From: Clostridiales bacterium
GTDB taxonomy: Bacteria; Bacillota; Clostridia; Saccharofermentanales; Saccharofermentanaceae
DNA: 64,000 nucleotides
Direction: 5' to 3'
Assembly: GCA_017513085.1 (NCBI GenBank)
Contig: JAFWDK010000001.1
Location: forward strand, 34,991 to 98,990
Of this stretch, positions 57,309 to 63,697 are shown piece by piece. How positions within the stretch are numbered: position 1 is the stretch's first letter; each line of letters begins with the position of its first letter. A program made the translations under genes and the position numbers. The notes beneath the pieces were generated by a model. The model did not search any database and was not told the origin of the DNA. It saw only the letters and a program-made list of their open reading frames with translations.

Positions 57309-58260
57309 TGTCGTCGCCTTAGGCGAACTTCTGGTCGATATGATCAATACCGGAGAATCGGGATCCGGGAATCCGGTATTTGAAGCGAATCCGGGCGGTG
57401 CGCCCTGCAATGTGCTGGCGATGCTGCAGAAACTCGGGAAAAAGACAGCTTTTATCGGGAAGGTCGGAAATGACGCTTTTGGCAAAAGGCTCCGCAGCGA
57501 GATCGTTTCCTGCGGGATCGACGACAGCGGACTCCGCGTAGATGAGAACATTCCGACGACCCTGGCTTTTGTGCATAAACTGGAGAACGGCGACCGCGAC
57601 TTTTCCTTTTACCGTGATCCCGGAGCGGATGTGATGCTGGAAGAGGAAGAAGTGGACCTTTCGCTGATCCGTGATTCAAAGGTCTTTCATTTCGGATCTT
57701 TATCGTTGAGTGATGAACCTTGCCGCTCGGCAACGAAAAAAGCCGTCGCGGCAGCCGAAGAATACGGGATCCTGCGTTCCTATGATCCCAATCTGCGTAA
57801 GCCCTTATGGCACAGCGAAGAGGAAGCCAGAGAACAGATCCTCTGGGGAATGAAACACTGCGATATCCTGAAGATCGCCGATAACGAGATCCTCTGGCTG
57901 ACGGGAGAGGAGGATCATGATCCCGCCGTATCGGTGCTCCTGAAGGAGTTTGCGATCCCGCTGATCGCGCTGACGCTCGGCCCGGAAGGCAGCCGGATCT
58001 ATTATCAGGGGAAAAGGATCGATATTCCGCCTTTTCCGCAGAATACTGTTGATACGACCGGGGCAGGAGATACCTATTGCGCCTGTCTGCTGAACGGGAT
58101 CCTGGAGAACGGACTCAAAGATCTTGATGAAGACAAGATCCGCCGTTTCGGTGTTTTTGCCAGCGCTGCGGCAGCGATCGTGACAACACGCAAAGGCGCG
58201 TTAAAATCCATGCCGGACGCAGAATGCGTAAAGGCGCTGATGGATACATATTCAGATTAA
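57292..58260 (+). CDS. PfkB-family sugar kinase (fructokinase-like)
   Basis: GGAPCNV, YDPNLR, VDTTGAGD. Confidence 0.9.
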   Translation: MTKRYDVVALGELLVDMINTGESGSGNPVFEANPGGAPCNVLAMLQKLGKKTAFIGKVGNDAFGKRLRSEIVSCGIDDSGLRVDENIPTTLAFVHKLENGDRDFSFYRDPGADVMLEEEEVDLSLIRDSKVFHFGSLSLSDEPCRSATKKAVAAAEEYGILRSYDPNLRKPLWHSEEEAREQILWGMKHCDILKIADNEILWLTGEEDHDPAVSVLLKEFAIPLIALTLGPEGSRIYYQGKRIDIPPFPQNTVDTTGAGDTYCACLLNGILENGLKDLDEDKIRRFGVFASAAAAIVTTRKGALKSMPDAECVKALMDTYSD

Positions 58261-58265
58261 GACGG

Positions 58266-58290
58266 AGCAGGGCATACAGGCCCTGCTTCT
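58266..58290 (+). terminator. Terminator after the kinase
   Basis: agcagggc-atacag-gccctgct followed by tctgtt. Confidence 0.65.
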
Positions 58291-58315
58291 GTTCTTAGAA
58301 CATCTTTGTTTTCCG

Positions 58316-58452
58316 TTGACGTTGAGGAGCCTGAAAACCTATAATTTTAAAGGAAGTTTTATGGGCAATCCGGAACCACGAAGTTGAAGTTCCTGAATGT
58401 ACCGAGACATGAGTGGCCGGAAACTGATATGGTTTTCCGACCCGTTTTTTTA
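58316..58452 (+). promoter_or_regulatory. Sigma-A promoter plus attenuator/riboswitch-like leader
   Basis: TTGACG(58316)-18 bp-TATAAT(58340). Terminator-like hairpin 58415-58442 with T7 tract overlaps a competing helix 58369-58379/58413-58421. Confidence 0.6.
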
Positions 58453-58472
58453 TGAATAAGCAAGGGGATACT

Positions 58473-59573
58473 ATGGATTACTTTAATGATGTGCAGCTTA
58501 AACCTCTGTTTAACGAAGGCGGCATCTCCTTCGGCGAACTGGAAGGGAACTTCAAAAACCATTATTACGTGCTTTCCGATCCGAAGATCGCAAAGCTGCT
58601 GAATTCGCCTGAAGTCGTTGGTTTTGATGTCTACAAGGCTCTTTTGCCGGCGACCTCCGCAGCTCTGCGCTACTTCAGCGAACAGCATTTCCTGCATCCG
58701 GTCAATATTCTCACGATCCTGCGGGGCGCGCTGAATTACCCGATGGAGGAAGGCTGTTATTCACAGAGCATTCCGGTGCATGACATCAGTTTCCTGTCCT
58801 GCGAGCGTGTTTTTGACGGTAAGGAGATCGTCGGACTGGATGCCCGCTACAGCAAACTGGCGGTCGTACCGGACGGGACTCTGCTCATGGGAGATATCAT
58901 CGCGAGCGGCGAGACTCTTATTTACTGTCTCAATCATATGCTGGATTTCTACAAGCAGCACGATGCAAGGCTGAAGAATATCCTCGCCTTTACGATCGGC
59001 GGTACGAGAGCTGTTGAGATCGCCGAAGAGATGACAGAGAAGATCCGCTGCTTCTGGCCGGAATTCGAAGGTTTTAACGTCGCCTTCTACGGCGGCATGT
59101 TCAGCTGTTATGAGAATGCCGGCGTTGCCGGGATCCAGATCAAAAATATCGATTTCTACTGGGGTGAAAAGGGGATCGTCGATCCGGAATACCGCAGGAT
59201 CACGCTCTCGCAGAGAGATCCGATCTTTGAAAAATGCATCATCTACGATGGCGGGGCGCGCCGCTATGAGATCAACGAACATATCGGGGAAGTGCTTGAA
59301 TACTGGGAAGCGGTCCGCGAAAGAAGCGGCCGCATCGATATCCTTGAACTGCTGGCGGAACGTCTCGGACATCCGCTGAAGATCAGTCTTGAGGAATGGA
59401 TCGATGCCAATGGCTACCGTTATCTCGAAAAAGATCTCTGCGAGAAACTCTATCAGCAGGAACAGGATTATATCCGTGCGCTCAAAGAAGAGGCGCCCAC
59501 ACTGAAGGAGATCGCGGAAGGACGCATCGCTGAATTCAAAGAGGCGCTGAACACGTATGTTTCCGTTCGTTAA
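58473..59573 (+). CDS. Divergent type I phosphoribosyltransferase (UPRT-like) with C-terminal extension
   Basis: NILTILRGALNY (compare UPRT VPILRAGL) and LLMGDIIASGETL (PRPP-binding loop); RBS aagggg. Confidence 0.6.
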   Translation: MDYFNDVQLKPLFNEGGISFGELEGNFKNHYYVLSDPKIAKLLNSPEVVGFDVYKALLPATSAALRYFSEQHFLHPVNILTILRGALNYPMEEGCYSQSIPVHDISFLSCERVFDGKEIVGLDARYSKLAVVPDGTLLMGDIIASGETLIYCLNHMLDFYKQHDARLKNILAFTIGGTRAVEIAEEMTEKIRCFWPEFEGFNVAFYGGMFSCYENAGVAGIQIKNIDFYWGEKGIVDPEYRRITLSQRDPIFEKCIIYDGGARRYEINEHIGEVLEYWEAVRERSGRIDILELLAERLGHPLKISLEEWIDANGYRYLEKDLCEKLYQQEQDYIRALKEEAPTLKEIAEGRIAEFKEALNTYVSVR

Positions 59574-59585
59574 GGGGAAAGAAAA

Positions 59586-60824
59586 ATGACAACAAAGAAT
59601 GAAAAAGTAAAAGATGTCGACTTCTCGACTTCCGCGGTGCCGAAGAATCAGCGCCGCAGTTTCCTGACCATGTTCATGATCATGCTGGGCTTCACCTTTT
59701 TCTCTGCCAGCATGTGGGTCGGCCAGCAGCTGGCGGACGGCCTGGATTTCGGAGGGTTCCTGGGAGCCCTGATCCTGGGCGGTATCATCCTGTCGTTTTA
59801 TACCGGCTCGCTTGCCTATGTGGCAGCCAAGACCGGCATGTCGATGGATCTTCTGGCGGTCAAGGCTTTCGGCAGAAAAGGATCCTATATCTCTTCGGCG
59901 ATGATCTCGCTGACGCAGATCGGCTGGTTCGGGGTCGGAGTGGCGATGTTCGCGATCCCGGTCGCCAATGAGCTTTTCGGCGGCAGCACTTTCGTGACCT
60001 ATCTTCTGGTCATCATCGCCGGCATCCTGATGACTTCTTCCGCCTATTTCGGTATCAAGTCGCTGACGGTCGTCAGTTATATCGCTGTTCCCTGCGTGGC
60101 GATCCTGGGCACTGTCGCCATGATCCTGGCGGTCCAGCGGGGCAACGGCACTTTCCTGGAGAACTTTGCCCGTTCCTCCGGCACGCTGACGATGATCGGC
60201 GGCGCCGGCCTCGTAGTCGGCTCCTTTGTTTCGGGCGGTACAGCAACTCCGAATTTCGCCCGTTTCGCGAAGAACGCGAAAGATGGTGTGATCACGACGG
60301 TCATCGCCTTCTTCATTGGCAATTCCCTGATGTTTTTCATGGGCGCCGTATCCTCGATCTACGTAGGCGGCAATGATATCTTTGAAGTCATGATCAATCT
60401 CGGTCTTTTCTATGTCGCGATCCTGGTCCTCGGTCTGAATATCTGGACAACGAATGACAATGCGCTGTATTCTGCCGGACTGGGACTGGCGAACATCTTC
60501 GGAAAGGATAAAAAACCGATGGTCCTGATCTCAGGCATCATCGGCACCCTGTCCGCGATCTGGCTTTACTGGAATTTTGTCAGCTGGCTGAATATCCTCA
60601 ACTGCACGCTTCCGCCGGTCGGTATCATTCTCGTTCTGGCGTATTTTCTGCATCCGGAGGAATACGATCACGTCGGATCAGACATAGTCGTTGACTGGGC
60701 AGCTGTTATCGGTGTGATCGCCGGCGCGATCGTTGCCAACCTGCTGCAATGGGGCGTTGCCTCGATCAACGGCATGGCGGTCGCGGCAGTGATCTATATC
60801 CTCGGCCATAAACTGAAACGCTAA
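59586..60824 (+). CDS. codB: Cytosine permease (NCS1 family)
   Basis: MLGFTFFSASM, TQIGWFGVG, VGSFVSGGT, NIWTTNDNALY. Confidence 0.9.
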   Translation: MTTKNEKVKDVDFSTSAVPKNQRRSFLTMFMIMLGFTFFSASMWVGQQLADGLDFGGFLGALILGGIILSFYTGSLAYVAAKTGMSMDLLAVKAFGRKGSYISSAMISLTQIGWFGVGVAMFAIPVANELFGGSTFVTYLLVIIAGILMTSSAYFGIKSLTVVSYIAVPCVAILGTVAMILAVQRGNGTFLENFARSSGTLTMIGGAGLVVGSFVSGGTATPNFARFAKNAKDGVITTVIAFFIGNSLMFFMGAVSSIYVGGNDIFEVMINLGLFYVAILVLGLNIWTTNDNALYSAGLGLANIFGKDKKPMVLISGIIGTLSAIWLYWNFVSWLNILNCTLPPVGIILVLAYFLHPEEYDHVGSDIVVDWAAVIGVIAGAIVANLLQWGVASINGMAVAAVIYILGHKLKR

Positions 60825-60865
60825 GAGCTTTTACGGCCGGTAAAGCCGGCTTGCTTATAAAGCGC

Positions 60866-60900
60866 AAACAGACCCGGCGGGAAGCCGAGTCTGTTTTTTC
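60866..60900. terminator. Bidirectional terminator
   Basis: aaacagacccggc-gggaa-gccgagtctgtttttt. Confidence 0.7.
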
Positions 60901-60977
60901 TATTGTGTTTAATTGAGCTGCGAAAGGATCGTCCGGTTTTTCTGTCTGCGAATACTGTTGCAGAACGGAAGCGGACG

Positions 60978-62192
60978 TTACTTGAATATCGCAGGCAGAG
61001 GCTGATTGTACACAAAGTCTTTGCACTGCGAAGTCAGCGCGTCCGCGATCATTTCGTAGAGTTTCTTGAGCTCGGTCCCGTGATCCCACGGATCAGCCTT
61101 CGACGGTTTGAAATCATATCGCGATGTCGCGGAGTCAAGGCTCGGCGGATTCTTCATGAAACAGAAAGGAGCATCTTTACCATCGGAAAAAGCTTCATGG
61201 GTATCGATGTTCTCCATGGCATGTCTCTGGACTTCACGCACGAGTCCGGTCATGGCATCGAGCGCATCCTGGCACGGCTTGTGGGTGATCTGGTTGCTGT
61301 AGGGGCGGATCTTCTCACTCATCAGTTTCGTGCATTCATCGCGGATCTCTTTCATTTTATCCTCGGTAGGCGTCTGCCTTGTCAGGATATTCGTGTAATT
61401 ATCTATGACCTGCATTTTTGTAGACCAGTCATATCTCACCTCGTATTTTCCGGGTGACGACTCTTTAATGCAGTCGTCCAGTCCTCTCTTCTTTAGGTCT
61501 TCCTGATAATCCTGGAGTCTCCTGTTGAAGTATTCCTCCATCACTTTCGACTTCTGTCCCTCGAGTTCTCGGATCTTCAGAGCATAGAACGCCGCGTAAT
61601 CATTGGCTCTACCGGCCGGGATCTCCCTTGTGCGGCTGAGCTGCCAGTTGACTGTTTCGAGCTGGGTGTCGATGCGGGCGTAAAGATCTTCGTCATAATC
61701 TCCCTCGGAGAAATTATCGACCCAGCATAAGTAGTTATAGGAAGCTTCCAGCGGAAATTTCCTGAGCATTTTGTTCACGTGATAACAGGCGTCGCTGAGC
61801 ATTTCGATATCTTTGAGATATTCCCGTCCGGTGTTCAGGCACCGGATCTCATCATCGTCGTAGTCCGATGTGACCAGCCTGCCGTCAGTGTATGACAGTG
61901 TAGTTCCGTTCTTCCGGTAGTAAGTGCGGATCCATCCGCTGTCGCCCAGATCATTCATGTACAGCGCCTTCATCATGTTGTCTGTGGTGCTGAAATCACG
62001 GACATCGATCAGTTTGTTTAAGTGACTGGTAAAATTATTGGTCCGCTGGGCAAACCCGCCAAGTTCATATTCAAATACCTTTTCATCGACAGACAGGAAA
62101 GACATGGCGATCTGCGCATCGTCTTCCTGCTCCTGAAGGAGTTCAAAGCGTTCTTCAATACTAAGCTTATCGAAATCAATACCTTCACCCAT
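60978..62192 (-). CDS. Hypothetical protein, 404 aa, acidic and helical
   Basis: Long ORF with strong RBS aaaggag; no motif recognised. Confidence 0.75.
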   Translation of the reverse strand: MGEGIDFDKLSIEERFELLQEQEDDAQIAMSFLSVDEKVFEYELGGFAQRTNNFTSHLNKLIDVRDFSTTDNMMKALYMNDLGDSGWIRTYYRKNGTTLSYTDGRLVTSDYDDDEIRCLNTGREYLKDIEMLSDACYHVNKMLRKFPLEASYNYLCWVDNFSEGDYDEDLYARIDTQLETVNWQLSRTREIPAGRANDYAAFYALKIRELEGQKSKVMEEYFNRRLQDYQEDLKKRGLDDCIKESSPGKYEVRYDWSTKMQVIDNYTNILTRQTPTEDKMKEIRDECTKLMSEKIRPYSNQITHKPCQDALDAMTGLVREVQRHAMENIDTHEAFSDGKDAPFCFMKNPPSLDSATSRYDFKPSKADPWDHGTELKKLYEMIADALTSQCKDFVYNQPLPAIFK

Positions 62193-62233: not shown

Positions 62234-63520
62234 TTAGAACCGGATCTCGTAATCACGCACATACCATCTGCCGCCGTTGGTGCGGATAAGATTTCTTCTT
62301 ACCGGACTGCCCAGCTGCTTGCCGTTCTTGTCAAAGGCAATGGTCTGTACGGACGCGTATTCGACTTTATCGCCGTATCTTTCGGCGATCTTCTGCTGAT
62401 CCTCGGAAGAGAGGAAGTAGGAATCAAGACCCTTTTCATCGTTATAGCCCTTGACCACTGTGATCTTGGTGGCATCCGGGACGACTTCGGCATGAACGTA
62501 TTCCCCGTGGAAACGCTCCTGATGAAGATCCCAATGATAAAGAAGCAAAGATTCCTGAGTGGGATTCTGTCTTCTTTCCGGCTGGATGCAGTCGGTATAA
62601 AGATCGTAGTTCTTTTCCTTGATCGCCTGACGGAAGATCTCAACGAGACGTTCCGGAGTTACATCTTCCGGTACGGATTTTTCGGTATACCAGCTTTCCT
62701 TGATCCCGGCGACTTCTTCTTCACCGAGGAAACGTCCGCTGTTTTCACGTTCCGGATCATACAGACCGAGAACATGTCCCGGCACATAGAGAGCGATCGG
62801 TTCAACGACTACTGCGTAGACCGGTCCGCCGACCTTTTTCTGTCCGGCTTCCGGGATCTCCATGGTCACGTCGGTGATCTCACCGAGGACTGTCCAGGTG
62901 TCGACTTCCATCATCGTGGAATCCACAAGCCGGCGGTAACGCTTAACGGCTTCGTAAGGTCCGAGCCACTTTCTGCTGTTGATCTTGACGAAATACATTC
63001 CGGTCGAGCGTTTGCCGACAGAGATGAATTCGCCGGTAACGCCCATAAACTGGTTCATCGGGTAACGGACTTCGTCCAGAATGACGTATTTGCCGGTCAC
63101 TTCATCCATCGAATCGTTCATCGGATCGGGTGCCGGATAGATTTTTTCAAGTGTTTTGTCCGCGTATTGCGCGGTCAGCTCCTTCCAGCCGTTCTCGCTC
63201 TTCTCGCAGTAGAGTTTGCGGATGTTTTCTTCATTTACGAGATACTGGGTCATCGCGCCGGTGATCTCGGTGAAGTTGCCGGTAGAGCCGATGACACAGT
63301 TCCGGGCTCTCTGAAAAAGATCCTTGACCCTCGGGTCATCCGGGGCAAACTCGTTGAGGATCTTGATACGTGATAAAGCATCCTCACGCGAGCGGAAAAT
63401 GCCGGTAGCTCCCTGTGCTCTTTTGACTTCGTTTTCAAATTCTTTCAGATACATCTCCGCCTGCTGTATCCGCATGGTGAGATTGGTGCTGTTAACAGTA
63501 AAAGTTGTGCTGTCGACCAT
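62234..63520 (-). CDS. Hypothetical protein, about 428 aa, possible C-terminal NTF2-like domain
   Basis: RBS gaaagga and upstream TATAAT; TPERLVEIFRQAIKEKNYDLYTDCI...GRWYV. Confidence 0.75.
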   Translation of the reverse strand: MVDSTTFTVNSTNLTMRIQQAEMYLKEFENEVKRAQGATGIFRSREDALSRIKILNEFAPDDPRVKDLFQRARNCVIGSTGNFTEITGAMTQYLVNEENIRKLYCEKSENGWKELTAQYADKTLEKIYPAPDPMNDSMDEVTGKYVILDEVRYPMNQFMGVTGEFISVGKRSTGMYFVKINSRKWLGPYEAVKRYRRLVDSTMMEVDTWTVLGEITDVTMEIPEAGQKKVGGPVYAVVVEPIALYVPGHVLGLYDPERENSGRFLGEEEVAGIKESWYTEKSVPEDVTPERLVEIFRQAIKEKNYDLYTDCIQPERRQNPTQESLLLYHWDLHQERFHGEYVHAEVVPDATKITVVKGYNDEKGLDSYFLSSEDQQKIAERYGDKVEYASVQTIAFDKNGKQLGSPVRRNLIRTNGGRWYVRDYEIRF

Positions 63521-63697
63521 GATTATCATCCTTTCTCAAAGAATCTCTCTTTTAATTATATCATCCGGATATATTCTCTAATACTGCATCAAAAATGACA
63601 GTTCCGCTAAAAATGTCAAGAAAACAAAACCGCCCGTTGGCCGGGCAGAGTCTGTGAACAGTGATCGATGGGAATATCGGGCGGAGGGCTGGCAGGC

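Follow-up and report, generated by a model that had tools for sequence, protein, structure and literature searches.

A stretch of 64,000 nucleotides from the genome of a Clostridiales bacterium of the family Saccharofermentanaceae (assembly GCA_017513085.1, contig JAFWDK010000001.1; the whole stretch is called the window below) carries a two-gene operon that poses a simple question: what becomes of the cytosine that its permease would bring into the cell? The second gene of the operon is codB, which encodes a cytosine permease, and the first encodes a protein of 366 amino acids (aa) that belongs to a family without a name. In the maps of pyrimidine salvage, cytosine enters metabolism solely via deamination to uracil. 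The answer proposed here, which we hold at about even probability, is that the locus is a cytosine salvage operon, and that its first gene encodes a new pyrimidine phosphoribosyltransferase (PRTase), similar to uracil phosphoribosyltransferase (UPRT), that would turn imported cytosine into cytidine monophosphate (CMP).

The two-gene arrangement had been described in an earlier note made from the sequence alone, and it is borne out, with the 366-aa open reading frame (ORF) at 58473-59573, a 12-bp gap and codB at 59586-60824.

58473..59573, plus strand: gene of the UPRT-like phosphoribosyltransferase, family without a name, candidate cytosine PRTase (ORF, AlphaFold2 model, Foldseek, profile match)
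59574..59585, plus strand: intergenic gap of 12 bp with the ribosome-binding site GGGGAAAG (sequence)
59586..60824, plus strand: codB, cytosine permease of the NCS1 family, 412 aa (NF008241, alignment to 7qoa)

The ORF table lists the first gene as a 373-aa plus-strand ORF (58452..59573) with a second ATG at 58473 that yields the 366-aa protein; the start is placed at 58473 because GGGGA lies a few bases 5′ of this ATG and the homologues begin at the same alignment column.

Both this operon and codBA of E. coli pair a CodB-type permease with one soluble enzyme, but here the partner has the phosphoribosyltransferase (PRT) fold and is encoded upstream of codB, whereas in codBA it is a deaminase with the amidohydrolase fold, encoded downstream; the predicted product is CMP here, compared with uracil and ammonia there. 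No CodA adjoins codB of the window, where the PRT-like gene is found instead. The gene order is that of upp-uraA in E. coli and xpt-pbuX in B. subtilis, in which a PRTase gene is followed by the gene of the permease for its base, with uptake coupled to nucleotide trapping; those pairs, however, combine an NCS2 permease with a canonical UPRT or xanthine phosphoribosyltransferase, rather than the NCS1 permease CodB with an enzyme of a new family.

Fold and conserved residues of the 366-aa protein

As a single query, the 366-aa protein has no match in Pfam (E≤1), NCBIfam, PADLOC or the sequences of the Protein Data Bank (PDB); neither PF14681 nor PF00156 is matched at E≤1, and no DNA-binding domain is found in the Pfam scan. 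It is not without relatives, however: of the 8,000 candidates that were scored, 1,464 proteins match at E≤0.001, and an exhaustive search gives 316 matching representatives at 50% identity. Among the 120 matches listed, the single name given is ‘hypothetical protein' (Lachnospiraceae bacterium), and the cluster names are uninformative (‘hypothetical protein' and one ‘hypoxanthine phosphoribosyltransferase'); the automatic cluster name in the ESM Atlas, ‘Phosphoribosyl transferase domain protein', is taken as a lead only. A defence-system PRTase, such as a retron-type effector, was also considered and rejected, given the lack of a PADLOC match at E≤1 and the metabolic neighbours.

The kinship of the family comes to light in the structural model. 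The AlphaFold2 model, built with an alignment of 53 members, has a predicted local distance difference test score (pLDDT) of 94.9 and a predicted template modelling score of 0.93, and the Foldseek search against the PDB yields 93 matches at E≤0.001, with ranks 1–11 all occupied by UPRTs (E of 3.1e-6 to 1.6e-5, template modelling score on target of 0.48–0.58, ~200 aligned columns, 13–18% identity). These are followed by hypoxanthine and adenine PRTases (HPRT and APRT) and by PyrR (E of 6e-5 to 3e-4 for the PyrR chains), and every chain among the matches listed is UPRT, HPRT, APRT, PyrR or an unnamed protein beside them. The PRT fold that the earlier note had suspected from short motifs is thus present in the model and is closest to UPRT. 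The best PDB sequence match of the family profile is also a UPRT (2e55, E 0.003), with the pairings ILRGGLNF/ILRAGLSF, vsFlsSqR/VGFLGIKR and GDivATGtT/DPMLATGGT, and the same motifs are paired over residues 73–185 in the hhalign comparison with 25 UPRTs from Bacillota, which is itself weak (E 0.006, probability 6%).

In the alignment of 53 diverse full-length members of the family, nine residues are invariant in all 53 (R84, G85, R112, D141, D227, C255, D259, G261 and R263), and a series of motifs runs along the sequence: ILRGGLNF, SFxSSQR, YxK, GD[IV]xATGxT, FFTIG, ExxF, TD and ERCxIYDGGxRxF. All the motifs quoted in the earlier note are found in the translation, namely ILRGA at residues 82–86, LLMGDIIASGETL at 137–149 and KCIIYDGGARRY at 254–265. 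The codons of the main elements are as follows.

58722..58727, plus strand: R84–G85, in the pyrophosphate-binding loop ILRGA, the counterpart of UPRT ILRAG (invariant in 53/53; aligned to ILRAGL)
58803..58808, plus strand: E111–R112, in the loop of a beta-hairpin (R112 invariant; E111 specific to the codB-linked clade, Q in the distant clade)
58881..58919, plus strand: PRPP-binding motif LLMGDIIASGETL, residues 137–149, with GD replacing DD/ED/DP (D141 invariant; aligned to UPRT DPMLATGGS); PRPP is phosphoribosyl pyrophosphate
59091..59093, plus strand: G207 (Glu in 207/212 family members)
59226..59267, plus strand: invariant motif FEKCIIYDGGARRY, residues 252–265, which may correspond to GLGDAGDR, the base-binding hood of UPRT (C255, D259, G261 and R263 invariant)

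The GD of the PRPP loop, which the earlier note had singled out as unusual, is a property of the family: most PRTases have DD or ED at this position and UPRT has DP, whereas the family keeps only the second acid, the invariant D141, and has Gly in place of the first in at least 90% of the members. UPRT likewise has a single acid here. Three more residues of this region (G140, A144 and G146) are conserved in at least 90% of the 53 members. The counterparts of the UPRT R-A-G pyrophosphate loop and of its flexible-loop Arg are both present, as R84–G85 and R112, which are invariant and aligned to UPRT.

Judging by the model and these alignments, the protein consists of a UPRT-like type I PRT core with conserved PRPP-contacting positions, to which a beta-sheet at the N-terminus and a helical extension at the C-terminus are predicted to be added. 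The protein is most aptly placed in a new family that has the type I PRT fold. Upp (PF14681; PDB 1xtt, 1o5o and 2e55) has in common with it the core fold, the ILR[AG]G pyrophosphate loop, the hairpin-loop Arg, the Y-x-K before the PRPP strand and the [ST]G-x-T 5′-phosphate loop. The differences are in size (366 aa compared with ~210 aa, that is, ~150 residues more), in GD compared with DP, in the three extra N-terminal strands and the C-terminal helical bundle, and in the presence of ERCxIYDGGxRxF, after an insertion of ~40 residues, where there is no GLGDAGDR hood. The protein is placed outside PF14681 because it fails the gathering score of that model, on which the real Upp of the same genome scores 274 bits, and lacks the C-terminal uracil-binding hood of UPRT (I-x-P-G-L-G-D-A-G-D-R). 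The resemblance of YDGGxRxF, within ERCxIYDGGxRxF, to GDAGDRLF of the hood is non-significant (hhalign E 0.032, probability 1.6%). A second catalytic domain in the C-terminal 129 residues was considered and finds no support: a separate AlphaFold2 model of this part (pLDDT 76) has no PDB matches at E≤0.001, and the suggestion of the earlier note that the extra parts couple phosphoribosylation to a second reaction is not upheld.

The copy in the window has a peculiarity of its own at position 207, where Glu is found in 207 of the 212 family members, Asp in two, and Gly only in the window protein and its two nearest relatives (L003 and L004; 99% and 84% identical). The ratio of nonsynonymous to synonymous divergence against the 84%-identical orthologue is 0.096/0.74 (~0.13) for the enzyme and 0.031/0.60 for codB; the lineage with Gly207 is under purifying selection and the operon is retained.

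CodB, its companions and a predicted route to CMP

The permease is the clearest member of the pair. The window CodB scores 414.9 bits with the NCBIfam model of cytosine permease (NF008241, cut-off 326), as expected from the earlier assignment, and falls far under the cut-offs of the hydroxymethylpyrimidine transporter model CytX and the general NCS1 model; residues 9–406 align to the structure of Proteus vulgaris CodB (7qoa) at E 4.8e-93. In that structure, as described in the available part of the report, W108 and F204 stack the cytosine, Q105 contacts it with its side chain, S203 and A207 with main-chain atoms, and G202, S206 and N280 through water bridges, with an edge contact by F33 that is said to shut out 5-methylcytosine (PMC9379551). 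Ten residues (F33, Q105, W108, G202, S203, F204, S206, N280, R216 and Y285) are identical in the window CodB, and the sole change among the cytosine contacts is A207 to G, at a main-chain contact. That this CodB, the product of the only NCS1 gene in the genome, imports cytosine is a well-supported prediction from homology and conserved binding residues, that is, the NF008241 score and the contact residues shared with 7qoa. The CodBs adjoining the PRT-like gene form a lower-scoring subtype (422–438 bits with NF008241), compared with 463–538 bits for orphan or codA-linked CodBs of the same bacterial family.

The genome to which the window belongs is 99.4% complete and has no match to the CodA model (NF005748), in agreement with the absence of a deaminase claimed in the earlier note. 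It encodes CTP synthase and, away from the operon, a canonical Upp (274 bits, ~210 aa, LLDPMLATGGS) that shows the DP and the size taken by the note as typical of UPRT. Canonical upp is also found in all five further carriers tested, and thus in 6/6 with this genome; given the resident Upp, uracil salvage is already covered, and the 366-aa protein coexists with it. An NCS2 permease has uracil permease as its best specific match (301.7 bits, under the cut-off of 477), and the three proteins with the CMP/dCMP-deaminase fold best match TadA, cytidine deaminase (Cdd) and ComEB. Apart from the PRT-like protein, no enzyme that could use imported cytosine is recognisable in this genome.

Close relatives of the gene are strongly associated with codB. 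A scan of one genome per species gives 587 confirmed relatives, and among the best 80 loci (52–99% identity, mostly gut and rumen Lachnospiraceae, with the nearest relative, at 99%, in an Erysipelotrichaceae genome assembled from metagenome), codB lies directly 3′ on the same strand in 58, with a gap of 16–200 bp and 66–99% identity to the window codB. One of the other 22 is on a contig that ends 231 bp past the gene, and the rest have unrelated neighbours (beta-lactamase-family, ODP/flavodoxin and MatE proteins, and an HhH-GPD glycosylase with three xanthine-dehydrogenase-like subunits). Even then, codB is present elsewhere, above the cut-off (463–536 bits), in each of ten genomes with an unlinked PRT-like gene. 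Eight regions with stand-alone codB were examined, seven from those ten genomes and one from G183; the neighbours are unrelated to pyrimidine metabolism in the seven regions scanned (G688 and G691 not among them). On the FastTree phylogeny, the codB label needs at least 6–9 changes inside the well-supported gut clade, which implies repeated loss or gain of the linkage.

The same association appears among 251 Lachnospiraceae genomes, sampled evenly; the PRT-like gene is rare, being carried by 8 of them and by 3 of the 398 Clostridia genomes sampled. CodB is above the cut-off in 11, comprising all 8 carriers and only 3 of the 243 non-carriers. CodA is above the cut-off in four: the three non-carrier codB genomes, where codA abuts codB, and one carrier, G174. 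Intact CodA is found in this one alone of the 17 carrier genomes tested (the genome of the window, G001–G004, seven more from the sample, G688–G691 and G694, with G692 and G693 left out). Among the other 16, none has a CodA match at looser limits either, apart from a remnant in G688; these limits were E≤0.001 for the genome of the window, E≤1e-30 for the Lachnospiraceae sample and E≤1e-20 for the five extra genomes, and G001–G004 have only matches of at most 30 bits. The PRT-like gene tracks codB and largely excludes codA.

Two further loci in this group call for description. In G688, which carries the PRT-like gene elsewhere, a decayed codA lies 233 bp behind codB (locus L198, C74:9341-9670; 110 residues, model positions 189–298, 109.6 bits, two stop codons) and looks like a snapshot of CodA loss. 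In genomes similar to that of Eubacterium ramulus (loci L074:7327-11819, L050, L055, L057, L058, L063 and L070), the PRT-like gene is followed by the gene of an HhH-GPD glycosylase and then by those of a three-subunit enzyme of the xanthine dehydrogenase family (flavin adenine dinucleotide, 2Fe-2S and molybdopterin subunits).

The distant half of the family presents a different picture. A metagenome scan seeded with it (seed P0197, 26% identical to the window protein) yields 80 loci that are 40–86% identical to the seed, many on short contigs; none of them has a codB-like gene or any linkage to a nucleobase permease, so that the linkage to nucleobase transporters that the earlier note had set as a check holds for the close homologues (58/80) and fails for the distant members (0/80). 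The neighbours of these loci are a PNP_UDP_1 phosphorylase directly 3′ on the same strand in 12/80 (L093–L148), the best NCBIfam match of which is uridine phosphorylase (148–160 bits, under the cut-off of 280), NUDIX proteins in 12/80 (L090–L111), dCTP deaminase in 8/80 and RNase R in 8/80; the one NUDIX representative scanned also contains, as a fusion, a region weakly similar to nucleoside-2-deoxyribosyltransferase (22 bits, under the cut-off). Two kinds of fusion occur, NUDIX–PRT-like (P0169) and PRT-like–PNP_UDP_1 (P0263). These associations tie the whole family to the salvage of pyrimidine nucleosides and nucleotides, with cytosine and uracil not distinguished by the neighbours. The distant members with NUDIX or PNP_UDP_1 partners may represent an undescribed pyrimidine nucleoside salvage module of environmental bacteria and archaea.

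In a column-by-column comparison, the invariant catalytic positions are common to the codB-linked and the distant clades, and the following positions differ.

Position 86: A in the codB-linked clade, G in the distant clade
Position 89: Y in the codB-linked clade, F in the distant clade
Position 92: E in the codB-linked clade, R in the distant clade
Position 111: E in the codB-linked clade, Q in the distant clade
Position 230: W in the codB-linked clade, R in the distant clade
Position 254: K in the codB-linked clade, R in the distant clade
Position 270: H in the codB-linked clade, Y in the distant clade

Among these, Q111 to E, R92 to E and R230 to W are changes from hydrogen-bond donors to acceptors, and the shift from Arg or Gln to Glu would fit a pocket turned from donating to the carbonyls of uracil to accepting from the amino group of cytosine.

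The route that we propose is short. CodB would bring cytosine into the cell, where the enzyme, in the role held by the cytosine deaminase CodA in the classical codBA operon, would bind PRPP through R84 and G85 (pyrophosphate), R112 of the hairpin loop, D141 (ribose hydroxyls) and the loop A144–T148 (5′-phosphate), these roles being assigned by motif-by-motif alignment to UPRT. The phosphoribosyl group would then be moved to N1 of cytosine to give CMP and pyrophosphate, a step that genomic context alone suggests, and CMP kinase would feed CMP to the pool of cytidine di- and triphosphate (CDP and CTP), bypassing uracil and CTP synthase.

Flanking signals and other genes of the window

The operon is set between signals of unequal strength.

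58316..58345, plus strand: promoter-like site TTGACG-18-TATAAT (11/12 consensus matches)
58350..58472, plus strand: leader (5′ untranslated region), with the ribosome-binding site GGGGA at its end (sequence)
60866..60902, plus strand: intrinsic terminator, a stem-loop (~60866-60896) followed by a U-run (fold of -32.8 kcal/mol)

The operon had been credited with its own promoter and a shared terminator. The terminator stands, the hairpin 3′ of codB (-32.8 kcal/mol, z -3.07) being equalled by 2 of 200 shuffles, whereas the promoter is suggestive, because four such sites occur in the 3-kb region compared with 2.1 expected from shuffles. Upstream, the gene of a pfkB-family kinase stops at 58260 and is directly followed by a terminator-like hairpin (58264-58289); the gene after the codB terminator is convergent with the operon.

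The leader contains a short ORF (ATG at 58361, 8 codons, AAGGAAG upstream), and a hairpin with a U-run that ends at the alternative ATG (58452) and recalls attenuation of the pyrimidine type. The folding of the leader is no better than that of shuffles (z +0.67), the leader is conserved just in L003 and L004, no common upstream motif is found among the leaders of 77 related loci, and Rfam, PyrR binding sites included, gives nothing for 57500-61500 at E≤1. A riboswitch or attenuator in the leader was rejected on the strength of the Rfam, folding and motif results. Three runs labelled as metatranscriptomes contain only small shares of the window (0.08–0.09). Contigs from them cover short segments and come chiefly from relatives; two exact segments, of 152 and 253 bases, fall within codB. 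No contig spans both genes, and DNA carry-over is possible.

Elsewhere in the window, a gene of the N-acylglucosamine 2-epimerase family (PF07221; 56045-57308, plus strand) is split in two ORFs of 169 and 242 aa that cover model positions 3–121 and 143–347. In L003, the closest related genome found (95% identical DNA in this region, with one gap), it is one intact ORF of 417 aa; either the gene has been frameshifted or has recently become a pseudogene, or the assembly is wrong here. Two large neighbouring ORFs beyond the operon, convergent with it (60978-62192 and 62234-63529, both minus strand; 404 and 431 aa), match nothing in Pfam or NCBIfam at a meaningful E-value.

Alternative activities and implications

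Several facts weigh against a cytosine PRTase. According to reviews (PMC10221552), no known organism has this activity, which is probably selected against. The base specificity of the enzyme is not readable from its sequence, and uracil is the substrate of the structural relatives nearest to it; no Pfam PRT model is matched at E≤1, and the profile–profile alignment to UPRT is weak. In the experiments reported in PMC9379551, the uptake of cytosine by P. vulgaris CodB is inhibited by both uracil and isocytosine, so that uracil may be the substrate here. One carrier, G174, has an intact codBA operon together with an unlinked PRT-like gene, the CodA model has a strict cut-off, which 1 of 14 control genomes passes, and the surveyed genomes are related, so that the counts are not independent. 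The lack of permease linkage in the distant relatives implies that cytosine need not be a substrate throughout the family, and Gly207 that the activity of the window copy may differ from that of the rest of the family.

The enzyme may instead be a divergent second PRTase for uracil, or for pyrimidines broadly, that makes uridine monophosphate, with CodB importing uracil or with cytosine deaminated by an unrecognised enzyme; this is unlikely, although it is the main rival. UPRTs are nearest both by structure and by sequence profile, distant relatives adjoin or are fused with uridine-phosphorylase-like proteins, the classical partner of UPRT, and uracil competes with cytosine for uptake by P. 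vulgaris CodB (PMC9379551, available part). Such an enzyme would be added to a canonical upp already present in all six carriers tested, and the genome of the window also has an NCS2 permease with uracil permease as its best specific match. Tracking codB (8/8 compared with 3/243, and 10/10 genomes with unlinked copies) and largely excluding codA would be unnecessary for a plain UPRT, the permease retains the residues that contact cytosine, and the two clades, codB-linked and distant, have different residues at conserved positions of the motifs. The enzyme could also act on a pyrimidine that is modified or unusual, or on some other substrate of the CodB subtype, or work in the reverse direction or by different PRPP-dependent chemistry on a pyrimidine nucleotide. 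Consistent with this are the nameless family itself, ~150 residues longer than UPRT, the invariant Cys255, Asp227 and Glu253 that have no assigned counterpart in UPRT, the lower scores of the PRT-adjacent CodBs with the E. coli-type model, and the NUDIX neighbours and fusions of the distant members, which point to chemistry at the nucleotide level. The linked CodB, however, has essentially the same pocket as the cytosine-bound structure, and among the residues kept is F33, which bars 5-methylcytosine (PMC9379551), and the C-terminal extension has no fold match indicative of a second catalytic domain (none at E≤0.001). We consider this quite improbable.

There is a very small probability that the protein is a regulator similar to PyrR or PurR, a sensor of PRPP or of a pyrimidine nucleotide with the PRT fold that controls the permease gene behind it. 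The arrangement of pyrR and pyrP in Bacillus, where the regulator gene lies ahead of the permease gene, is a precedent; PyrR, the bifunctional pyr attenuation protein with weak UPRT activity, shares with the window protein the fold and the position of its gene ahead of that of a pyrimidine permease, its chains are among the fold matches, and a hairpin with a U-run lies in the leader just ahead of the gene. But the window protein is twice the size of PyrR and has no DNA-binding domain in the Pfam scan, the leader folds like shuffles and is unconserved beyond the two nearest relatives and across the 77 related loci, no PyrR site or other Rfam element is matched in 57500-61500, the gene is apart from codB in 22 of the 80 loci, and the distant members are fused to enzymes.

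The conversion of cytosine to CMP thus remains the favoured activity of the window enzyme. No paper assigning a gene to cytosine phosphoribosyltransferase activity was found in a full-text search, with most subscription journals and supplements outside its scope; the sole report of the activity that was found is a 1985 study of Giardia extracts, the accessible part of which describes a minor activity, with no gene (PMC2187579). With slightly less than even confidence, we suggest that here, for the first time, a cytosine phosphoribosyltransferase is traced to a gene: the family, or its codB-linked clade among Bacillota of gut and rumen if not all of it, would make CMP directly from imported cytosine and PRPP.

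If it is correct, the pool of cytidine nucleotides can be reached bypassing both cytosine deamination and CTP synthase, a missing reaction is added to nucleotide metabolism, and the annotation of ~1,500 ‘hypothetical' proteins changes. It would also bear on the way in which gut Lachnospiraceae handle cytosine analogues, for example, 5-fluorocytosine, and would provide a new marker for selection and counter-selection. Should the enzyme use uracil, it would still represent a new, structurally distinct UPRT-like family. In the genomes, the gene family behaves as a replacement of CodA, which makes a long-noted gap in pyrimidine metabolism testable.

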